A stretch of 43,309 nt of DNA from IMG/VR virus record IMGVR_UViG_3300027852_000073; one strand, 5' to 3'. Positions 9,988 to 25,293 of the stretch are shown one piece after another. The translations under genes were made by a program, and so were the position numbers. The notes beneath the pieces are model-generated. The model searched no databases and had not been told where the DNA came from. It saw nothing but the letters and a program-made list of their open reading frames with translations. The stretch comes from a virus. How positions within the stretch are numbered: position 1 is the first letter of the stretch; each line of letters begins with the position of its first letter.

Positions 9988-10164
9988 ATGGCAGATAACC
10001 TCAATGTTTATAAGTATTGTGAACGTTGTAAGGGAACAGGAGAAGTTGTTTCAAATCAACCTCCGCAAGAAGGACTTTATACACCAGTAATGGTTACTTG
10101 CAATCGCTGTGATGGTGAAGGAAAACATTTATGGGGAATTATGTTAGAAGAGGAAGATGAATAA
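9988..10164 (+). CDS. Small DnaJ-type zinc-finger protein, 58 aa (below the ORF-track size cutoff)
   Basis: Two CxxCxGxG motifs (CERCKGTG and CNRCDGEG). The ATG is 2 nt after the previous stop, and the ORF fills the gap to the next gene. Confidence 0.6.
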   Translation: MADNLNVYKYCERCKGTGEVVSNQPPQEGLYTPVMVTCNRCDGEGKHLWGIMLEEEDE

Positions 10165-14742: not shown

Positions 14743-16158
14743 ATGCCAATAGCACCTATTACATTAATAAAAGGGGATAAAGTAAGCTCTTTAATAGATT
14801 ATAGAGATGCTTTATCAGTAAATATGTATGCAGTTGAAAAAAATATTTTAGGAGCTCAAGGGTATATGTTAGCGTATCCAGGACTCACTTCTTTTGGTAC
14901 TAGTTTAGGTGTGGATCGTGGAGCAAATTATAATGAAAGATTTAGCAACCATTTTAGAGTTTCTGGAACAAATTTAATATCTGTATCTTCTGCAGGTATA
15001 GTTACTAATTTGGGCACAGTTCCCGGAATTTCTCAATGTCGTTTACAAGATTTTTATAGTTTTAATACTCAAGGTATAATAGCTGATGGAAAAATGTTTT
15101 TGTATGATACTGTTGGTGGTTTTAGAGAAGTAATTGATGCTGATCTTGGAAATCCTATTGATGGAGTTTGGGTTGATGGTTATTATTTTTTAACAGATGG
15201 TGAATATATTTATCATACTGATATTGCCGATGAAGAGTCTATTGATCCTTTAAAATTTGCTACAGCAGAATTTATGCCAGATCCTTCTCTTGGTATTGGA
15301 AAAACATCAGATAATAAAGTTATAGTATTTGGAAGATATACAATAGAATATTTTTCAAATGATGCTTCTGTAAATTTTGCTTTCACACGAATAGTTACTA
15401 GAGCTCAAAAAATTGGCATAGTAGCTACTCATGCTAAATGTGAATCTAAAAATGTTTGGTATATTACAGGTGGAAGAAGAGAGGATGCTATATCAGTTCA
15501 TAGGTTAGCACATAGTATTTCTGAAAAAGTATCTACACGTGAAATCGATATATTGCTTAAACAGTATACAGAACCTGAATTAGCAGATATAAGAATGGAA
15601 GTACGAATGGAAGATAATATAACTTTTATACTTATTCATTTACCAAATGAAACACTTTGTTTTAATGAAACTATTTCATCAGTGATGGGTTTACAATATG
15701 CATGGTCTATTTTAAAAACTGATATAGATGGCAATGCTCCATATAGAGCAATTAATGGAGTACTCGATGCTAGAAATTCTTTATGGATATATGGTGATAA
15801 AGTAGATACACATCTTGGAAAATTAGATGAGTCAGTAGTAACCCATTACGGTGATAAAGTTGAATGGATATTATTTACCCCCTTTTTAAATTTAGATGGG
15901 ATGTCAATTGATGAGGTAGAAATAGCAATTATCCCGGGATTTAACATAATCGATGATGCTACTATAGCTATTTCACTTACAAATAATGGTTTAACTTATG
16001 GAAGAGAGTATTTGTTAAAATATAGTGAACCTTTAGATTACGGTAAAAGGTTTTTTATTAGACGTCTTGGGTATATAAGAGATTATGTTGGTTTTAAACT
16101 TAGAGGTATTTCTACATCTAAAATGGCATTTGCATTAATGAAGGTTACTTATGACTGA
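14743..16158 (+). CDS. Tail hub protein, P22 gp10-like
   Basis: 471 aa, against 472 for P22 gp10. Shared blocks as I recall them: MPI..., DY.D.L.VNM, YTIEYFS, ILIHLP, ILFTPFL, NGLTYGREY, LGYIRDYVGFKLRG. Confidence 0.85.
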   Translation: MPIAPITLIKGDKVSSLIDYRDALSVNMYAVEKNILGAQGYMLAYPGLTSFGTSLGVDRGANYNERFSNHFRVSGTNLISVSSAGIVTNLGTVPGISQCRLQDFYSFNTQGIIADGKMFLYDTVGGFREVIDADLGNPIDGVWVDGYYFLTDGEYIYHTDIADEESIDPLKFATAEFMPDPSLGIGKTSDNKVIVFGRYTIEYFSNDASVNFAFTRIVTRAQKIGIVATHAKCESKNVWYITGGRREDAISVHRLAHSISEKVSTREIDILLKQYTEPELADIRMEVRMEDNITFILIHLPNETLCFNETISSVMGLQYAWSILKTDIDGNAPYRAINGVLDARNSLWIYGDKVDTHLGKLDESVVTHYGDKVEWILFTPFLNLDGMSIDEVEIAIIPGFNIIDDATIAISLTNNGLTYGREYLLKYSEPLDYGKRFFIRRLGYIRDYVGFKLRGISTSKMAFALMKVTYD

Positions 16159-17628: not shown

Positions 17629-18564
17629 ATGGGTGGAGATGGAAGTGGAGAGGTTTGGGAACAAGTATTAACACCTGGAAGACAAGTAGAATGGTTTGGC
17701 ATGGGTGGTGATGGTGGTGATGGTGGTAGTGAAGCTGCTGATGCCGCGGTAGAATCTGCAGATATTTATTCTGATGCCGCTATTGATGCTGCAAAAATTC
17801 AAGCAGGGTCTCAAAAAGAAGCTTTAGATTACCTCAAAGAAAGAGAAGAACTTCCCCAGAAACTCAGAGAAGGAGCTTTAATATCACTAGGTAGATTGCA
17901 AGGATTTGGTGGAGAATACGGAGATCAAGAAAAAATGATTCAACGTTCAATTGATTCTCCATTATACCAAAGCATTATAGAAGGTAAAGAAGCCGGTGAA
18001 GAAGCTATTTTAAGATCAGCATCAGCGACAGGGGGTTTACGATCTGGAGATACAAGTTATAATTTATATGATTATAATACACGATTACAAAATAGTGCTT
18101 TGTTAGCATCATATAATGAACAACTTATGGGACTTCAAGGGCTAGCAGGATTGCCTTCTAATTCAAATACAATTGCTAGTTCTATGGAGGGTATTGGTGT
18201 GACAAAAGCTGGGGGGACTCTGGAGTCTGGTAGAGCAACATCCCAGGGAATTACTGCTGCTGCTCAAGCAAATATTATGGCTGAACAAGCAGCAACAAAT
18301 AACTTAATGGGGTTAGCAAGTTTAGGCATTTCAGCAGTTGGTGCATTTTCAGACCGAAGACTTAAATCTAATATAAAGAAAGTTGGAACAGTAAGAGGGT
18401 TTAATTTTTACTCATTTGACTGGAATTCTGTTGCAAATATGTTAGGGCTTGAGGGTTCTACATACGGTTGTATGGCTGATGAAGTTTTCCAAGTTGCCCC
18501 AAAAGCAGTCACATTAAGAAATAACTTTATGTTTATTAATTACTCAGCAATAGGAGTGTTATAA
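17629..18564 (+). CDS. Needle-position tail protein or fibre with a C-terminal Peptidase_S74 intramolecular chaperone domain
   Basis: The C-terminus SDRRLKSNIKKVGTVRGFNFYSFDW...GCMADEVFQVAPKAV...INYSAI matches the S74 signature (SD.RLK.NI ... AQEV ... P.AV). The N-terminus is Gly/Asp-rich and is followed by a helical region rich in Ala and Gln. The gene sits where P22 has gp26. Confidence 0.75.
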   Translation: MGGDGSGEVWEQVLTPGRQVEWFGMGGDGGDGGSEAADAAVESADIYSDAAIDAAKIQAGSQKEALDYLKEREELPQKLREGALISLGRLQGFGGEYGDQEKMIQRSIDSPLYQSIIEGKEAGEEAILRSASATGGLRSGDTSYNLYDYNTRLQNSALLASYNEQLMGLQGLAGLPSNSNTIASSMEGIGVTKAGGTLESGRATSQGITAAAQANIMAEQAATNNLMGLASLGISAVGAFSDRRLKSNIKKVGTVRGFNFYSFDWNSVANMLGLEGSTYGCMADEVFQVAPKAVTLRNNFMFINYSAIGVL

Positions 18565-20279
18565 TGATGGAAGGAAATCCTTATTTTGTTAATCCAATGG
18601 GAGACTATTCTAAAGGTCTTGCTGGTCTAACAGGAGCTATAAATCAATTTGGCAAAGAAAGAAAAGCAGATCAAGCCAAAAAAGATAAAGAAACCATTTT
18701 TGAAGGAGCTGCAGAAGTTTATAAGAAAGGTGATCCTGAAGCTATAGCAGAGTATTCTTTAAAGTATCCTGAAGTTAGAAATAGTCTTATATCAGCTGTC
18801 AACTTTAGAGACCAGTCAACCAAAGAAAACTTTATAAATTCATCATTTAAAATTATACAAAATGCAGATAATCCTGAAGAAGTTGCTAATATAGTAAAAT
18901 CGCGACAAGCTTTCCTCAAAGCCAAAGGGATTCCTCCTGAAGAAACGAGAGCAACAGATTCTTTTTTAAAAGCGTATGAAGCAAACCCAGAAAATGCCAT
19001 TAAAAAGTTAAAAGGAACAGTTGCTGCCATGGCTCCTGAAAGATATAAAGCTTATAGAGAAACTTTAGGAACTGCTGATACTAAAAAGACTGGTGATGTA
19101 AAGAATTTTGAATATTATCAAAACCTTAAAGAAACCCATCCTGATTTAGCAGATAGTTTTGGTATAAAAACAGGATTTAAGAAAGATGATAAAACAGCAG
19201 CAGTAAAAAACTTTAATACTTTTATAAACCTTTTAAATACTGATCCAGAAAAAGCTAAATTATTTGGTGACTCCATTGGTATTAATAGAACTACACCTTA
19301 TACTGATATGGCAAAGTTAAAAACTGATTTAAACAATGGCCTTATAACAGAAGAAGATTACCAATCAAGAAAAGAAGCTTTACTAAACCCAACAATGAAA
19401 AACAAAACAGAGTTAACTATGGCAGCTCTTCGCGGTAATGAAGAAGCTAAAAATGTTTTAAAAGCTTTAGCATTAGATGATGTTACAACAGCTGGTAAAA
19501 GAAGTCAAGCTTCGACTGAAGGAAAACTCACAGCATTATATGCAGCCATGGATTTAGATGGAGTAGCTCAAGCTGTTTTAGAAGGCAAAGAAACTATAGA
19601 CAACGTGCGCAATACTTTTGGTGTTCCAATTCAAGAGGTTGTCCGGGAGAAAATTTTAAGTTCAGAACCAGATTTTAATTTTGTACAACCGAGAGCCATC
19701 CAAAAATCTCTTTCATCTTCTTTGGCACAGCAACAGAAAAATAGAGGTGCAATGGGTAGTTTTGTTAAGAATATAAATGGCCAACTTAGTAAAGTTGAAG
19801 ATATAATGCGAAAAGTTATTAATAGAGTTGGTGTAAGAGCCTTAGATTACCCCTGGAGAGAACTACATACAAGGTTTAAAGGTTCAGGTCATGAACGAGT
19901 TCTTGAAGCTTATATGAAGGAAATAAGTGTTGAAATATATAAATTATCTCAAGGTTCAACTGCATCAGTTGCACTGCTTCCTGAAAAAGGTAGAATAGAA
20001 TGGGAAGGAATTCATGATGTTACTTTATCTTACCCAGAACTTAAAAAAGTTCTTGTAGGCACAAATGATATGGCTAATATTCGTTTAAAATCTGTAAATG
20101 ACGAAATAAAAGAAACTATTGACAGACTTGGGAATATCCGAGAACTTAAAAACGTTTATACAGCTGGGCCAGGAGAAGCAGGAGCTGAATTTGAAGATTC
20201 GAATACCATAACAGTTACAAATCCTGATACAGGTGAAGAAGAAGTCTGGGATACAGTAACTGAAAAGAGGATTAAGTAA
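18564..20279 (+). CDS. Ejection / internal virion protein candidate (571 aa)
   Basis: A large helical ORF rich in Lys and Glu, lying between the needle-position gene and the 953-aa protein, where P22 has gp7, gp20 and gp16. Confidence 0.55.
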   Translation: MMEGNPYFVNPMGDYSKGLAGLTGAINQFGKERKADQAKKDKETIFEGAAEVYKKGDPEAIAEYSLKYPEVRNSLISAVNFRDQSTKENFINSSFKIIQNADNPEEVANIVKSRQAFLKAKGIPPEETRATDSFLKAYEANPENAIKKLKGTVAAMAPERYKAYRETLGTADTKKTGDVKNFEYYQNLKETHPDLADSFGIKTGFKKDDKTAAVKNFNTFINLLNTDPEKAKLFGDSIGINRTTPYTDMAKLKTDLNNGLITEEDYQSRKEALLNPTMKNKTELTMAALRGNEEAKNVLKALALDDVTTAGKRSQASTEGKLTALYAAMDLDGVAQAVLEGKETIDNVRNTFGVPIQEVVREKILSSEPDFNFVQPRAIQKSLSSSLAQQQKNRGAMGSFVKNINGQLSKVEDIMRKVINRVGVRALDYPWRELHTRFKGSGHERVLEAYMKEISVEIYKLSQGSTASVALLPEKGRIEWEGIHDVTLSYPELKKVLVGTNDMANIRLKSVNDEIKETIDRLGNIRELKNVYTAGPGEAGAEFEDSNTITVTNPDTGEEEVWDTVTEKRIK

Positions 20280-23140
20280 TGCCATTGCCAAAATATGTTC
20301 AAGATGCTTTTGACAGTAAAAATCTTTTTGCAGAAACTCCTCCTATGGAGAGTGGTATAGCAGAAACTCCTCCTATGGAGAGTGATATAACAGAAACTCC
20401 TCCTATGGAGAGTGATATAACAGAAACTCCTCCTATGGAAAGTGGTATAGCAGAAGATACTGTTCCTTTGGGTAGCCAAAGCCCTTTTCCACGAGGGAGT
20501 ATTCCCAAAACAGAAAGCAGTCTTCCTGATTATGTTCTTAAGGAAATGGGAAAAAGAGAACAACCTGAAGAATGGGGCACTGACTGGATGAGAGAGAACC
20601 CAACTCTTGCAGGTTTATATGGTGCAGGTAAGGGGTTACTTGAACAAGCAGTTGTTCCGACTATTGAAACTATAGGAATGATTGGTGGGAGTGCGGGTTC
20701 TCCTATTGTTGGGACAGCTCTTGGTTATGGAATGGCAAGACAACTTAGTGACTATCTTGTAGATTCATATAAGCGTCTTGGTGGAGAAGATATTGAAAAT
20801 AAAACAGTTGGCGAAGAGATGCTTCAAAGTGCTGCAGATGTTGGTACAGTTTTAGTTATGGGTAAAGCCATGGATATGGGGGTTAAGGCAGCGCCTTATA
20901 TTGAAGATTACTTATTTAAAGAGTTGCCAAAGAGATTATATGCAAGAGCAATTAAAACTCCAATGTCTAAAAAGTGGATACAAACTCTTCCTAATGAAAT
21001 AGTTTCAAAACAAACAGCTGCTATTGAAGAAGGACTTAGATCTAGGATTCCACCAAGTAAGTATGGACTTTCAAAGATAAAAAATCTTGAGAAAGAAGTA
21101 TCGGGGTATATTGATGACATTACTAAAATACTTTCTGAGGACCCTAGTAAAGTTATTAACAGAGAAGATATTCTTAAAGAGGGTTTAAAGAAAGCTTATG
21201 CTAAAGCTGCTACTAGTAGTGATCCAAAAGGAGCTAAAGGAATTGTTGATGCTATAGCTGACAGATTTAGAGCACACCCTGGTAGTTTAACTCCAGCAAA
21301 AGCAAACCAAATTAAACGTCAATTGTATAAAGAAGTAAAGTATGGGGCTTCAGAACCTGGAGCAATTAAAGCTCAAATGGATATAGTTGGAAAGAAGGGT
21401 GTGGCTAGAGAAATAATGCTAAACCTAGAAAAAACATATCCTGCATTGGCAGAACTTAATGCAACTGATGCCGCAAGAATAAGTTTAACCGAAGCTATTG
21501 AAAAATCATATGCCAGGGAAGCTCAAAAAAGCATGGTTCCCTTGGGAGCAAAAATATTATTACGTCCCAAAACTTGGCCACTATCTTTATGGGAATCGAC
21601 TATTGGGCACCCACAGATAAAAACAAGATTAGCTTTTGCTTTACATAAAGCTAATCCTGTTAAGTACCCAGCTAAGCCTTCAAAATATACTCCACCAGTT
21701 ACTCCAAAAGCTGTTTCATTAACCACAAAACCTCCTGAGTCTCTTATTGGTTTAAAGGGTAAAGCTCTACCCGAAGGAACTTATACATCAAGCCAGTTAA
21801 ACAGAATGCTTAAGTCAAAAGATGTTATTAAAGTAGATACAGCTTTAGAAAGCATCATTGAAAAAAGAATGGCTGATCATCTAGAAAGACAAAAGCATGT
21901 TACAACTGTTAATAAAATGCTGGGAATTCTTAAAAATGAAAAAGGTGCAGTTGGCCGTGACATAGGAAAAAAAAAATTAATTAAACCAGAGGTTAAATTA
22001 ACTACTAAATCAGTTGTTAAGCCAGTTGTTAAACCAAAAATTAAGTTAGCTAAACTATTAGAAAAAGAAGATTTAGGTTATAAAAACTTTCTTGAAAAAA
22101 TGATTAAAAATGCTCCAAATAAAATAATTAAAGCAGAATTAGAATCAGTTAGAGAGTTTATCCATCCTAATAGCATAGATAAAGTAACAAAAGCAGCAAT
22201 AAAACACAGTGGAGGCAAAATAGCAAAGGGTAAAAACCATGCTGAAATATATAAAGCTTTAGAATTAAAAGGCATACCTTTTAAAAATACTGAAGATATA
22301 GGTTTTGTAACAAATAAAAATAAATTTATGACTAGAGATCAAGCTGAAATTTTATATAAGTCTTATTCTGCTGATGAATTTTTTAATCCAGCTATTAAAA
22401 ATATGATAAATGAAAAAGCAGTAGAAACTATTCTCAAAAAAGGTTCAGTTAAACCAGTTGCTAAACCAACTGCTAAACCAAAAGAACCATTTGCTAAACC
22501 AGAGGTTAAACCAAAAGAAAAAATACTTTATCATACTTCTCATAAACTTTTAAAAAGTGGTAAACCAGTTAAAGATGCTTATTATGGAAATAAAGATTGG
22601 GCAAAAATGCATATAAGAGGTCGTACTGAAGAAACTCATAATTTTGGCGGTTATACTTATAAAGTAAAAGTACCTTCTAGTGCTAAAATTTTAGATTTAA
22701 GAAGTGGTTCTAAAGAATCTCGTGAACTTATGGCTAAATTTAATCATCAAGAGTATTCTTCGAATCCAGAATTTGCTAAAGATCTTTTAGCAGGTGATAA
22801 AATAGCTTTAGATGTTTTTTATGATGATTGGGCTGAATCAGCAAATAAGATTCTTAAACTTGCTAAATCTAAAGGGTACGATGGAATAAAATTTAATGAT
22901 GAATATTTTTTATCTAAAGGTTTAGTTAAAGAAATTCATGAAGTTGGACAAAGAACTTTAAAACCAATTGCTAAATCAGTAGCTGAACCAAAAATTAAAA
23001 TTTCTATTAAAGAGGAGCTTAAAAAATTAAAGGCAGATCTTAAAGAATTCAAAGAATTTGGAGATGATCTTGAATATATTGAAGATCTCAGTAAAGAAAT
23101 TAAAAAGTTAGAAGCACTTGAAAAGAGGAGTAAGAAATGA
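20279..23140 (+). CDS. Large multi-module ejection / internal virion protein candidate (953 aa) with polyvalent-protein-like architecture
   Basis: An N-terminal 10-aa repeat x4, a Gly-rich hydrophobic segment (LAGLYGAGKGLL...IGMIGGSAGSPIVGTALGYGMA), Lys/Pro-rich linkers (KPVVKPKIK and VKPVAKPTAKPKEPFAKPEVKPKEK) separating globular modules, and a C-terminal coiled coil. Confidence 0.6.
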   Translation: MPLPKYVQDAFDSKNLFAETPPMESGIAETPPMESDITETPPMESDITETPPMESGIAEDTVPLGSQSPFPRGSIPKTESSLPDYVLKEMGKREQPEEWGTDWMRENPTLAGLYGAGKGLLEQAVVPTIETIGMIGGSAGSPIVGTALGYGMARQLSDYLVDSYKRLGGEDIENKTVGEEMLQSAADVGTVLVMGKAMDMGVKAAPYIEDYLFKELPKRLYARAIKTPMSKKWIQTLPNEIVSKQTAAIEEGLRSRIPPSKYGLSKIKNLEKEVSGYIDDITKILSEDPSKVINREDILKEGLKKAYAKAATSSDPKGAKGIVDAIADRFRAHPGSLTPAKANQIKRQLYKEVKYGASEPGAIKAQMDIVGKKGVAREIMLNLEKTYPALAELNATDAARISLTEAIEKSYAREAQKSMVPLGAKILLRPKTWPLSLWESTIGHPQIKTRLAFALHKANPVKYPAKPSKYTPPVTPKAVSLTTKPPESLIGLKGKALPEGTYTSSQLNRMLKSKDVIKVDTALESIIEKRMADHLERQKHVTTVNKMLGILKNEKGAVGRDIGKKKLIKPEVKLTTKSVVKPVVKPKIKLAKLLEKEDLGYKNFLEKMIKNAPNKIIKAELESVREFIHPNSIDKVTKAAIKHSGGKIAKGKNHAEIYKALELKGIPFKNTEDIGFVTNKNKFMTRDQAEILYKSYSADEFFNPAIKNMINEKAVETILKKGSVKPVAKPTAKPKEPFAKPEVKPKEKILYHTSHKLLKSGKPVKDAYYGNKDWAKMHIRGRTEETHNFGGYTYKVKVPSSAKILDLRSGSKESRELMAKFNHQEYSSNPEFAKDLLAGDKIALDVFYDDWAESANKILKLAKSKGYDGIKFNDEYFLSKGLVKEIHEVGQRTLKPIAKSVAEPKIKISIKEELKKLKADLKEFKEFGDDLEYIEDLSKEIKKLEALEKRSKK
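20331..20456 (+). repeat. In-frame 30-bp tandem repeat x4.2 (AETPPMES[GD]I)
   Basis: CAGAAACTCCTCCTATGGAGAGTGGTATAG-type units start at 20331, 20361, 20391 and 20421. Confidence 0.95.
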
Positions 23141-25293
23141 ATATTCTCAGCAAAATGTTAAGGATTCTTAAGAATGAAGGTGGCTATATTAAAGTTGAAT
23201 TAGGACCTACTTATTTTCCACAAAGAACAATTGGTAGACCAATCTCAAATGCACAAATTTATGTTGGGGATCCTGATACTGATCCTGAAGTTGTTGGGAA
23301 TCAAATATCATTATTTGTACAGGAAGAAGATGGAACTATTGTTGAGGTAACACAGCCTATTAGAACCAATGCAGGTGGTACTCCAATATATGATAGTTCT
23401 CCTGTTACTTTATTAGTTGCAAGCAACTACTCACTTAAAGTTTTAGATTCTACTGGAGTACAAGTATATTATATTCCAAGTACAGATGTAAGTACTTATA
23501 ACACTATTCTTAACCATTGTACTCCTAATTATCTTGCAACTGACCAAGGACTTACTGGTGAATCAAACACTGTAAAATTTTGTGTAGATACAATAAACAC
23601 AAGTGAAGGAACAATTTTTTTGCGTCATAATTCTGGTGGAGCAACTACAACTTATACTTTTTCTACAAACGAAACTATACCTGTTAACATTAATCTTGAA
23701 ATAGAAAAAGGCGCAAAAATGTCTATTGATGCTGGAGTAACTCTTACTATTGAGGGTTTTTTTGGTCCAGGGTTATATCAAGTAGTTACTGGTGATGGCA
23801 ATATACAAGTAGGTACAAGAGTAAAAGAAATTCATCCACATTGGTTTGGAGCTGTAGTAGATGGTTCTACAAATGACGCAGCAGCATGGAATAAGGCTTT
23901 TGGATCAGTTGATGTATCTGATGCGAATGAAAGTGGAGCAACAATAATTGTTCCAGCAGGCACAAGTGTGGTTAATGACTCTATTGATGTACCCGGGAAT
24001 GGAAGATGGATAGTAAGAGGCCATGGTGATGTGTCAATAATAGAAGCTAATGGTCCTGATGCATTTACATTAGCTAGTGATGGTAATACTCACAGTGTTT
24101 TTGAGCATTTTAGAATGCAAGGAGATAATACAGCTGGAAAAGCAGCATTTAACTGTACTCCTGATGATCCTTTAACTGAAGTATGTACTGGAGTAAAATG
24201 GCAGCATTTGAGAATAACAGGTTTTAAAATAGCATTCAATGTCCCAAATACTCAATTATGTTTTTGGGAACATATTTCTATAGCTTTTACTGTTACAGGA
24301 TGTTCAGTATTTTATATGAATACAAGTGGGGTGTATAGTCAAAGTAATTCTAATAACGTTACTGAATCTCAATTTACTGGTGCAGATGCACAAGTATATG
24401 ATTTTACTTTTACCGCAGGTCAAAATAGAGCTACAACATGGGTACTTAAAGATACTGAAATTCAATTCTCAGGCACAACTATCCCAATTACTATTCAAGA
24501 TGTTGGTTATATAGTAGACAATTGTGGGTTTGAGAATAGTACAGCTGATAATCTTATAGACATTGTTTGTACTGATGATTTTGTACCTCACAATATAAGG
24601 ATTGAAAATAATACTTTTACTTTTACTCCTACAGGAGCTACAGCTCCTGTTAATATCAGACGAACTGGAGCAGTTCAATACCCTGCTATAATAAATATTA
24701 ATAATAATAGTTGGAATCCTGCTCTTAATATTGTTGATATAGGAGATGCCCTTCAAATTCATATTGAGGGTAATCAAGGTAAGGTTAATAATACAGGTGG
24801 AAGAGTTATTACTGAAATAAACAACAGTGATACTTTAGGGACTGTTAGAATGAGTTCTGTTAATACAGCTTCTGACATGCTTCTTGTGGGTACAGAAATA
24901 GTTGCTGGTGCTAATACTGGAGGTTATACTAGAGTATTTGAGAAAGCTTTTTATTACCAAACTACTAATGCCAATGCTACAAATTTTATAATACATAATC
25001 TAGCTGAAGGCGAAGTTGCCACTGTTTTTGTTACAGCATCTGCTTGGAATACTACAGATGATAATGCTTGGGCTGGCTATATGAAAAGGGCTACAGCTTA
25101 TAGAGCTGTAGCTGGTGCTGCCACATTACTTGGAACTGATGAAGATATTGGCACAGATAATGAAACTACTGTTGGATGGGATTTGGGTATAGGAGTTAAT
25201 GGAAATGATATAATAGTTATAATGACAGGAGAAGCAGCTAAAGATATTAACTGGGGCTTTAGCGTAAAATTAGTAGTGGTTAATGATAGTTAA
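23137..25293 (+). CDS. Tailspike with a pectate-lyase-type beta-helix (probable depolymerase)
   Basis: HPHWFGAVVDGSTNDAAAWNKAF matches the Pectate_lyase_3 N-terminal signature (FGA.GDG..DD..A). 718 aa, the last gene before the lysis cassette. Confidence 0.8.
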   Translation: MNILSKMLRILKNEGGYIKVELGPTYFPQRTIGRPISNAQIYVGDPDTDPEVVGNQISLFVQEEDGTIVEVTQPIRTNAGGTPIYDSSPVTLLVASNYSLKVLDSTGVQVYYIPSTDVSTYNTILNHCTPNYLATDQGLTGESNTVKFCVDTINTSEGTIFLRHNSGGATTTYTFSTNETIPVNINLEIEKGAKMSIDAGVTLTIEGFFGPGLYQVVTGDGNIQVGTRVKEIHPHWFGAVVDGSTNDAAAWNKAFGSVDVSDANESGATIIVPAGTSVVNDSIDVPGNGRWIVRGHGDVSIIEANGPDAFTLASDGNTHSVFEHFRMQGDNTAGKAAFNCTPDDPLTEVCTGVKWQHLRITGFKIAFNVPNTQLCFWEHISIAFTVTGCSVFYMNTSGVYSQSNSNNVTESQFTGADAQVYDFTFTAGQNRATTWVLKDTEIQFSGTTIPITIQDVGYIVDNCGFENSTADNLIDIVCTDDFVPHNIRIENNTFTFTPTGATAPVNIRRTGAVQYPAIININNNSWNPALNIVDIGDALQIHIEGNQGKVNNTGGRVITEINNSDTLGTVRMSSVNTASDMLLVGTEIVAGANTGGYTRVFEKAFYYQTTNANATNFIIHNLAEGEVATVFVTASAWNTTDDNAWAGYMKRATAYRAVAGAATLLGTDEDIGTDNETTVGWDLGIGVNGNDIIVIMTGEAAKDINWGFSVKLVVVNDS

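Follow-up and report, generated by a model that had tools for sequence, protein, structure and literature searches.

The 953-residue protein encoded at 20279..23140 (+) of the virus record IMGVR_UViG_3300027852_000073, a stretch of 43,309 nucleotides referred to here as the window, is interpreted as the ejection (pilot) protein in the gene-16 slot of an uncultured P22-like podovirus, and as a polyvalent carrier whose cargo includes a domain resembling ADP-ribosyltransferases (ARTs). Taken as a whole, we consider this interpretation to be just on the probable side. It draws on the position of the gene among P22-like virion genes, on the gain, loss and reordering of modules in its homologues and on a likeness of residues 748–893 (module 3) to the ART-PolyVal family (PF18760), which depends on the order of the motifs. 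The 953-residue gene is real and has 31 homologues, with E values from 0 to 9e-24. The open reading frame (ORF) starts with ATG, and all of the motifs quoted in an earlier reading made from the letters of the window (the sequence-only reading) were located within it: AAIKHSGG at residue 639 (nucleotide 22193), FMTRDQAE at 683, ILYHTSH at 749 (nucleotide 22523), AYYG at 767, GGYTYKVKV at 790, KILDL at 803 and SKGYDGIKF at 864. The ATG overlaps the stop codon of the upstream 571-residue ORF (TAATG), and the stop codon overlaps the ATG of the downstream 718-residue ORF (ATGA).

The sequence-only reading had placed the gene where P22 encodes its ejection proteins, and this is supported by synteny, with gp10-like and gp20-like genes upstream and a Head_binding tailspike gene downstream. 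The gene also lies downstream of the portal and coat genes, in the late (virion) gene block. The relevant genes are the following.

14743..16158, Phage_stabilise (gp10-like) gene, P22 gp10-like (E 1e-53), phrog_578
17629..18564 (+), ORF two genes upstream of the 953-residue gene, roughly in the gp7/gp14 slot, with matches to a 'DNA ejection' PHROG and to Peptidase_S74
18564..20279 (+), gp20-like ejection gene, 571 residues, upstream, with a match to phrog_2534
20279..23140 (+), stop codon included, 953-residue candidate ejection (pilot) protein in the gp16 slot, supported by the homologues and by synteny
23137..25293 (+), tailspike gene, 718 residues, downstream, with the P22 Head_binding N-terminal domain (PF09008, E 9e-19)

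The gene was assigned to the gene-16 slot because the gene order in P22 is 10-26-14-7-20-16 and the gp20-like gene is directly upstream. The gp20-like protein matches phrog_2534 (E 9e-11) and phrog_917 (E 1.5e-8), described as 'released from the phage upon host infection', and shows a weak match, below the cutoff, to the Pfam family of P22 gp20, Inj_translocase (E 0.032). The same slot is occupied by the homologue P0008 on an independent 42-kb phage contig, where it follows the P22 coat, gp4 and gp10 genes and precedes a Head_binding tailspike gene, and the IMG/VR contig L006 shows a similar arrangement around its homologue. By coat protein, the nearest cultured phages are Pseudomonas phage AH02 (63% identity) and Vibrio phage 1.275.O (48.5%). 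In the ORF at 17629..18564 (+), the match to phrog_598 ('DNA ejection') has an E value of 2e-6 and is accompanied by a C-terminal Peptidase_S74 intramolecular-chaperone domain (E 1e-7), a domain that is usually found in tail fibres and endosialidases; the same combination is present in the relatives L003 and AH02 (gene 11).

Sequence comparison with the known occupants of this slot gave no such support. A tblastn search with the protein against 50,697 phage records gave no match at 1e-3, and the profile of the conserved core aligned with AH02 gp13, from the same slot, with an hhalign probability of 0.3% (no similarity). What P22 gp16, AH02 gp13 and the 953-residue protein have in common is a Gly/Ala-rich, mildly hydrophobic N-proximal region. 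Two points count against our assignment here: the core profile and P22 gp16 share no homology in sequence (hhalign probability 0.2%), and we infer the label 'ejection protein' from gene position and composition, without homology. No relatives of the protein were found in 185,579 GTDB species genomes and the lineage therefore looks lytic and uncultured.

Within the protein, comparison of the homologues delimits the following elements.

20279..20329 (+), conserved N-terminal peptide MPLPKYVQDAFD..., residues 1–17, homologue consensus M.LP.YVQ
20330..20455 (+), 30-nucleotide tandem repeat encoding four decapeptides, N-terminal insertion site 1, located with Tandem Repeats Finder (TRF)
20516..21703 (+), conserved core, residues 80–475, common to all 31 homologues (BLAST mapping, alignment)
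20600..20758 (+), Gly-rich conserved segment, residues 108–160 (LAGLYGAGKG...GTALGYGMARQL), a candidate membrane-active element
21641..21736 (+), Lys/Pro-rich linker 1, residues 455–486, insertion site 2
21746..21958 (+), conserved helical 'C-box', residues ~490–560 (YTSSQLNRMLKS...VNKMLGILKNEKG), from the homologue alignment
21971..22048 (+), Lys/Pro-rich linker 2, residues 565–590, with a 12-nucleotide repeat at 22006..22036
22049..22441 (+), orphan module 2, residues 591–721 (AAIKHSGGKIAKGKNH...GFVTNKNKFMTRDQAE), from homologue comparison
22442..22519 (+), Lys/Pro-rich linker 3, residues 722–747 (KPVAKPTAKPKEPFAKPEVKPKEK), with 33-nucleotide and 12-nucleotide repeats at 22450..22519
22520..22957 (+), module 3, residues 748–893, candidate divergent ART-PolyVal-like fold, with key residues His752 (22532–22534), Tyr768 (22580–22582), Asp868 (22880–22882) and Glu875 (22901–22903)
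22991..23137 (+), charged, coiled-coil-like C-terminal tail, residues 905–953, read from the sequence

A polyvalent architecture had been proposed from the sequence, and the homologues bear this out, as modules have been gained, lost and reordered among the 31 proteins around a constant core; the family is truly polyvalent in its architecture, as Iyer et al. 2017 use the term (PMC5512222). The minimal members P0005, P0007 and P0012 (~535 residues) consist only of the N-terminal peptide, the core and the C-box, the last of which forms their C-terminus, and three insertion sites are used in the other members: after the N-terminal peptide, between the core and the C-box, and after the C-box. The first site holds the decapeptide repeats in the 953-residue protein and other Pro-rich repeats in P0002 and P0015, and in many homologues it holds an SLT lytic transglycosylase (PF01464, E ~1e-27); an N-terminal SLT domain or, in P0024, a PF18013 lysozyme domain is present in the homologue at 10001..11983 of L003, in P0008, P0010, P0013–P0016, P0018 and P0020, and in P0024. 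The N-terminal peptide is kept in the homologues even where an SLT domain is inserted directly after it. The second site holds module 3 in P0003 and P0009. The third site holds module 2 in the 953-residue protein and P0002, module 3 in the 953-residue protein, P0004, P0006 and P0010, an HEIQH-containing segment together with a match to LPD23 that stays below threshold (21.4 bits; cutoff 27) in P0018, and further modules in P0002, P0010, P0011, P0015 and P0016. The HEIQH of P0018 is a metalloprotease-like motif that adjoins the LPD23-like match (residues ~830–1047), a common module of ~80 residues (GTKTGE.FDSPIG.IKYDA...KKHGGYNK) is found at the C-termini of P0010, P0015 and P0016, and two extra modules of P0002 (residues ~740–1039), starting with KKLYFGT... 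and TAYHGT..., resemble further ART-like units.

The sequence-only reading had described two globular modules set apart by Lys/Pro-rich linkers; the separation by linkers was confirmed, but the count was not, as three units follow the core, namely the conserved helical box at residues ~490–560, the module at 591–721 and the module at 748–893. Besides linkers 1–3, a fourth Lys/Pro-rich linker spans residues 893–907. The four decapeptides that had been noticed at the N-terminus are present as [AT]ETPPMES[GD]I units at residues 18–57, encoded by 4.2 copies of the 30-nucleotide repeat (94% matches, TRF score 217). The protein P0001, encoded on a 43-kb contig, differs from the 953-residue protein only in having three repeat units where the latter has four (99% identity), and because the copy number differs between such near-identical phages the decapeptide repeat behaves as a variable linker. 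The Lys/Pro-rich linkers are likewise short tandem repeats at the DNA level (periods of 12 and 33 nucleotides), so that their length could vary by slippage in the same way. Two antisense ORFs over the repeat region (20156..20563 and 20299..20508) were rejected as by-products of the repeat. The Gly-rich hydrophobic segment of the sequence-only reading is present and strongly conserved (residues ~108–160), and compositionally similar segments occur in P22 gp16 and AH02 gp13, but its hydrophobicity is only moderate, with a Kyte–Doolittle maximum of 1.05 over 19 residues; it is thus not a classical transmembrane helix.

Neither Pfam nor PHROGs nor PDB gave a match to the core (residues 80–475). 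Module 2 occurs only in P0001 and P0002 (34% identity with the latter; a counterpart in P0011, at 20% identity, is doubtful), and this region, in which the sequence-only reading had singled out residues 630–700, has no significant match in Pfam, PHROGs, NCBIfam, PDB or IMG/VR. Searches of Pfam, PHROGs and NCBIfam with the whole protein and with five of its sub-segments yielded nothing but noise, such as matches to NDK (E 0.017–0.11), to indolepyruvate ferredoxin oxidoreductase (18–21 bits against a cutoff of 816) and, on the decapeptide repeats, to Extensin; searches of PDB sequences with the whole protein and with family profiles gave nothing significant. No peptidoglycan hydrolase, transglycosylase included, was recognized in the protein.

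Module 3 is far more widely distributed. An exhaustive search of 1.84 billion cluster representatives with a six-sequence profile returned 50 representatives at E ≤ 1e-3, of which 42 were at E < 1e-10 and seven below 1e-30. The carriers range from stand-alone proteins of ~150 residues (P0045, P0048, P0074, P0075 and P0078) to giants of 1000–2900 residues. None of 44 members matches any Pfam family consistently, even at E ≤ 10, and module 3 has no match in PHROGs, NCBIfam or PDB sequences; on these sequence searches module 3 is counted as a domain family that is absent from Pfam, PHROGs and NCBIfam. Across 48 sequences the near-invariant residues are His752 (46/46 ungapped), Pro763, Gly770, Gly790, Pro799, Asp806 (41/48), Trp851 and Glu875 (47/48), and position 768 is aromatic (Tyr in 29, Phe in 15 and Trp in three). 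ART-PolyVal co-occurs in 8–10 of the 48 module 3-bearing proteins, ADPrib_exo_Tox in three and Phage_Mu_F in two, and Acb1/2H, NUDIX, PARP, GNAT, SAM lyase, InPase and LPD22 each occur once. These neighbours are the usual companions of effectors that virions deliver (PMC5512222, PMC9503650). An obligate accessory role of module 3 for ART-PolyVal was rejected, as the order and spacing of the two domains vary and 38 of the 48 proteins are without ART-PolyVal.

The sequence-only reading had suggested an ART of the H-Y-E type for this module. In the published description of polyvalent ARTs the triad is instead H-Y-D, with His on strand 1, Tyr on strand 2 and Asp on strand 5 (Iyer et al., PMC5512222); the 953-residue protein has His752, Tyr768 and Asp868. 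Three motifs of module 3 have counterparts in the canonical ART-PolyVal domain, as follows.

Strand 1: YH-x-S in module 3; YHGT in canonical ART-PolyVal
Strand 2, followed by a helix: [YFW]-F-G in module 3; [YFW]-F-[TS] in canonical ART-PolyVal
Strand 5: GY[DE]G[VI] in module 3; GYDG[VI] in canonical ART-PolyVal

The strand-1 His is present in all 46 module sequences and in 36/36 canonical sequences, and His752 closes predicted strand 1 (ILYHTS). The strand-2 aromatic residue, Tyr768 (in AYYG) in our protein, is Tyr in 17, Phe in nine, Trp in seven and His in three of the canonical sequences, and it is followed by Phe in both families. Asp868 lies within GYDGI, on predicted strand 5. An AlphaFold2 (AF2) model of module 3 (pLDDT 87.4, pTM 0.83) contains b1 (4–9), b2 (22–25), a1, b3 (47–52), b4, three helices, b5 (124–127) and b6 (130–133), and an independent model of a canonical ART-PolyVal domain (P0112, pLDDT 81.6) contains b1, b2, a1, b3, two helices, b5 and b6; the order of the secondary-structure elements is the same in the two models. 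Global hhalign alignment of the module with ART-PolyVal keeps the motifs collinear (P = 5.6e-5). As a control, blocks of six columns of the ART-PolyVal profile were permuted (n = 60), which kept the motifs and destroyed their order, with the following scores.

Local alignment: real 26.8; shuffled 17.4 ± 2.4, maximum 23.1; the real score was reached by 0 of 60 shuffles
Global alignment: real 22.0; shuffled 5.2 ± 3.9, maximum 14.4; the real score was reached by 0 of 60 shuffles

Furthermore, among the 31 ejection proteins the best subthreshold matches of the ART-PolyVal hidden Markov model (HMM) fall on module 3 of P0009, P0001 and P0003, and further subthreshold matches fall on the YHGT/LYFGT-like starts of the two extra modules of P0002. 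In a structure search of BFVD (best E 6e-4), seven of the top 38 matches to module 3 bear the name PolyVal ART or ART-PolyVal-like; also matched were an internal protein of Pf-WMP3 and an N4-like virion RNA polymerase.

Several results weigh against an ART assignment, among them two of the direct checks that the sequence-only reading had pointed to. PF18760 (gathering score 31.2 bits) has no match at E ≤ 10 in the whole protein, in its sub-segments, in the module or in the 44 family members. Foldseek comparison of the module 3 model with PDB gave 38 matches at E ≤ 10, with no PARP or toxin ART among them, whereas the canonical ART-PolyVal model gave 418 PARP or toxin ART matches at the same threshold. 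The module 3 profile likewise retrieved no ART from PDB sequences, from which the canonical profile weakly retrieved PARP12, PARP10, PARP13, PARP4 and a PE-like toxin. The hhalign probabilities are low: 3.6–8.6% for local alignments (28.8% with a gap-trimmed template), the alignment with 36 compact PF18760 domains reaching 8.6% (P = 0.004) over the GYDG strand only, and 38% for the global alignment. The strand-5 Asp is invariant in the canonical family (36/36), but in the module family it is Asp in 24 of 48 sequences and Asp or Glu in 34 of 48; the Gly that invariably follows the catalytic His in canonical ARTs is replaced by Thr, Asn, Ser or Gln; and the family-invariant Glu875 lies on the strand after the position of the canonical acid. 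Some of the BFVD proteins named PolyVal ART may also have been matched through their own copy of module 3 and not through an ART domain. The direct checks of the earlier idea turned out negative, and it is divergent ART-PolyVal-like features (element order, collinear motifs and the shuffled controls) that speak for it; the ART idea is supported in part, neither confirmed nor refuted.

A further link between the two families is provided by the cyanophage A4 ejection protein gp27 (9k3a_B). This is the top PDB match of module 3 in Foldseek (E 0.16, probability 0.72, TMq 0.52), and it is also matched by the canonical ART-PolyVal model (E 3.3e-3), being the only non-PARP entry in the top 50 for a model that matches tankyrases and PARP1 at E 1e-3 to 1e-2. 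The Foldseek output does not give the gp27 residues aligned, which counts against the comparison, as the shared match could involve different gp27 domains. gp27, which is PDB entry 9K3A chain B, corresponds to 20116..25269 (−) of Anabaena phage A-4L (L005, KF356198). Its residues ~1425–1610 read LYHGT...GSGTYFSKSS...GVDALTDGD, and the ART-PolyVal profile matches residues 1424–1462 (P = 2e-4), so that the solved A4 gp27 appears to contain an unannotated ART-like domain at residues ~1425–1610. Pfam gave no match on gp27, hhalign gave no match between module 3 and the C-terminal domain of gp27 (E 0.29), and ribosylation is not mentioned for gp27 in the A4 structure paper (PMC12002296). Based on the same order of elements, the collinear motifs, the scores above those of all shuffles, the shared gp27 match and the names of the BFVD matches, module 3 is proposed to have an ART-derived fold, which we hold to be probable. 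Activity of the module as an NAD+-dependent transferase, as far as it can be predicted from sequence, is rather doubtful, and with similar reserve we put forward the wider possibility that module 3, together with its ~50 cluster representatives, makes up a new, active clade of ADP-ribosyltransferases that are delivered by virions and have an H-aromatic-E site; P22-like podoviruses and many phages with large polyvalent proteins would inject it by way of their pilot proteins.

Based on these observations, the following mechanism may be envisaged. The N-terminal peptide, the core with its Gly-rich candidate membrane-active segment and the C-box would form the carrier, through which the protein would be incorporated into the head; after ejection, the carrier would join a trans-envelope DNA channel, as P22 gp16 and T7 gp16 do. 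The flexible Lys/Pro linkers would tether swappable modules, the cargo in this protein being the module at 591–721 and the 146-residue domain at 748–893. Because the linkers tether the modules to the carrier, the cargo is proposed to leave the capsid with it, and would arrive in the host as soon as infection begins. Module 3 most likely diverged from the ART-PolyVal (Tox-ART-HYD2-like) fold and, if active, would consume NAD+ in modifying a host target early in infection, as T4 Alt does. The position of the gene, the modular family, the uncatalogued domain family and the collinear likeness to ART-PolyVal are shown; both the packaging of the protein in the head and its ejection are steps that we infer.

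The same domain could instead be non-catalytic, that is, a structural or scaffolding domain of a packaged pre-ejectosome, either as an ART-derived pseudoenzyme or as an unrelated alpha+beta domain, which would pack against subunits or DNA in the capsid or oligomerize in the channel without modifying any host target. The best solved neighbour of module 3 speaks for this, as the A4 gp27 domain belongs to a protein that is described purely as a structural, DNA-contacting component of the outer pre-ejectosome ring (PMC12002296), and so do the lack of conservation of the canonical catalytic Asp, the loss of the Gly after the His, the absence of an ART structure among the matches of the model and the hydrophobic or structural nature of most of the conserved positions (Pro763, Gly770, Gly790, Pro799, Trp851, Phe847 and Tyr848). 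However, the polar residues His752, Glu875 and Asp806 are hard to explain in a pure packing domain. The module is also dispensable and mobile, being absent from the minimal members and found at another site in P0003 and P0009, and its occurrence in very different large proteins and as stand-alone proteins fits an autonomous effector better; we therefore regard a purely structural role as unlikely. It is less likely again that module 3 is some other His/Glu(/Asp) enzyme, such as a hydrolase of the envelope or of a host nucleotide signal, with a convergent or superficial likeness to ART-PolyVal. Envelope hydrolases are indeed frequent on ejection proteins (SLT and PF18013 domains in the homologues; lytic transglycosylase and M23 domains in A4 gp28, PMC12002296), and the 953-residue protein has no recognized peptidoglycan hydrolase of its own. 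Acb1/2H and NUDIX domains co-occur with module 3, a BFVD match was to a 2H-superfamily protein (E 0.22), and the six-sequence profile gave weak matches to 2i9i (E 0.0025) and to the GH18 catalytic strand of Endo H (GLDGVDFDDEY against GYDGIKFNDEY, E 0.12–0.36). The 2i9i and Endo H matches vanish with the 44-sequence profile and are incompatible with the size and fold of the model, a mixed alpha/beta domain of 146 residues that cannot be a GH18 TIM barrel, and they were rejected as motif coincidences. Module 3 has a single HxS motif where 2H enzymes need two, it is not a simple substitute for SLT because P0010 carries both, and its order-dependent likeness to ART-PolyVal exceeds all of the shuffled controls.

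The remaining alternative concerns the carrier. The protein might not be ejected at all, and might be a tail, tail-accessory or non-virion protein encoded between the gp20-like and tailspike genes. It lacks detectable homology to P22 gp16 and to AH02 gp13 from the same slot, it has no PHROG or Pfam annotation and its hydrophobic segment is weak. Nevertheless, the gene occupies a conserved slot, flanked by the gp20-like ejection gene and the tailspike gene with start and stop codons that overlap; an SLT domain stands at the N-terminus of homologues, exactly as in T7 gp16 (PMC8954989); Gly-rich segments are found in the slot-equivalent proteins of P22 and AH02; and module 3 turns up again in polyvalent proteins that are fused to MuF or bear an ART. 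On this evidence we consider a protein that is not ejected to be very improbable, and an ejected polyvalent carrier with ART-like cargo is retained as the preferred interpretation.

Podovirus pilot proteins are usually seen as channel builders, at most with a cell-wall hydrolase. As the present family shows, in P22-like phages the gp16 slot can serve as a plug-in platform for diverse cargo, and module 3 recurs beside enzymes known for countering defences or taking over the host (ARTs, Acb1, NUDIX and SAM lyase). What is new here is the P22-like gp16-slot plug-in family, a domain family not yet catalogued, for which there are at least 50 cluster representatives, and the hint of an ART-like domain in A4 gp27. 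Module 3 deserves its own profile in domain databases, and the possible ART-like domain of the A4 pre-ejectosome offers a structural test bed. If module 3 were an active ART, takeover by an enzyme injected with the DNA, in the style of Alt, would also be a matter of podovirus pilot proteins, and biochemistry would gain a compact domain of 146 residues to work with; if there were an active clade, a podovirus trans-envelope channel protein would double as an effector-delivery vehicle and, with the related A4 gp27 domain, a packaged ART of this kind would have been solved for the first time.

Among the relatives, the 42-kb contig L003 encodes at 20223..20513 (−) an Acb2_Tad1_hairpin protein, similar to anti-CBASS/anti-Thoeris sponges, as well as DNA polymerase A, a ligase and an SNF2 helicase.

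That virions deliver polyvalent proteins and that ARTs are packaged in heads are established ideas (PMC5512222, PMC9503650), and P22 gp16 and T7 gp16 are inner-membrane/cytoplasmic ejection proteins that are packaged in the head (PMC8954989). Like the 953-residue gene, the P22 gp16 gene is the last of the ejection cluster and follows that of gp20 (gp15-like), and P22 gp16 (609 residues) is close in size to the minimal members of the family (~535 residues). T7 gp16 resembles many of the homologues in its N-terminal lytic transglycosylase (PMC8954989) and, together with A4 gp28, which carries lytic transglycosylase and M23 domains (PMC12002296), it is a known case of an ejection protein with a hydrolase. 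The 953-residue protein differs from P22 gp16 and T7 gp16 in ~400 additional residues of linker-tethered C-terminal modules and in having no transglycosylase. According to a review, P22-like phages lack the transglycosylase; contrary to this statement, many of the P22-like homologues carry one.

ART-PolyVal (PF18760, Tox-ART-HYD2-like) is found in polyvalent proteins of phages and conjugative elements (Iyer et al. 2017, PMC5512222) and, like module 3, it resides in large virion-associated multidomain phage proteins; for it, as for module 3, ART activity is putative. The module differs in its longer helical insert (three helices), its much shorter terminal hairpin and its invariant Glu, which lies seven residues downstream of the strand-5 Asp position. 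T4 Alt follows the same logic as that proposed here, in that an enzyme carried in the head is delivered with the genome and modifies host proteins at time zero. However, Alt belongs to the R-S-E ART clade (Alt/VIP2) and is an internal head protein of a myovirus, not a channel-forming pilot protein, and its activity has been proven by experiment, whereas that of module 3 is hypothetical. A4 gp27 comes from another phage lineage (Kozyakovvirus, family Saffermanviridae) and is longer, with 1717 residues; like the 953-residue protein, for which packaging would be expected from the position of its gene, it is a large ejection protein, and it is packaged in the capsid (PMC12002296).

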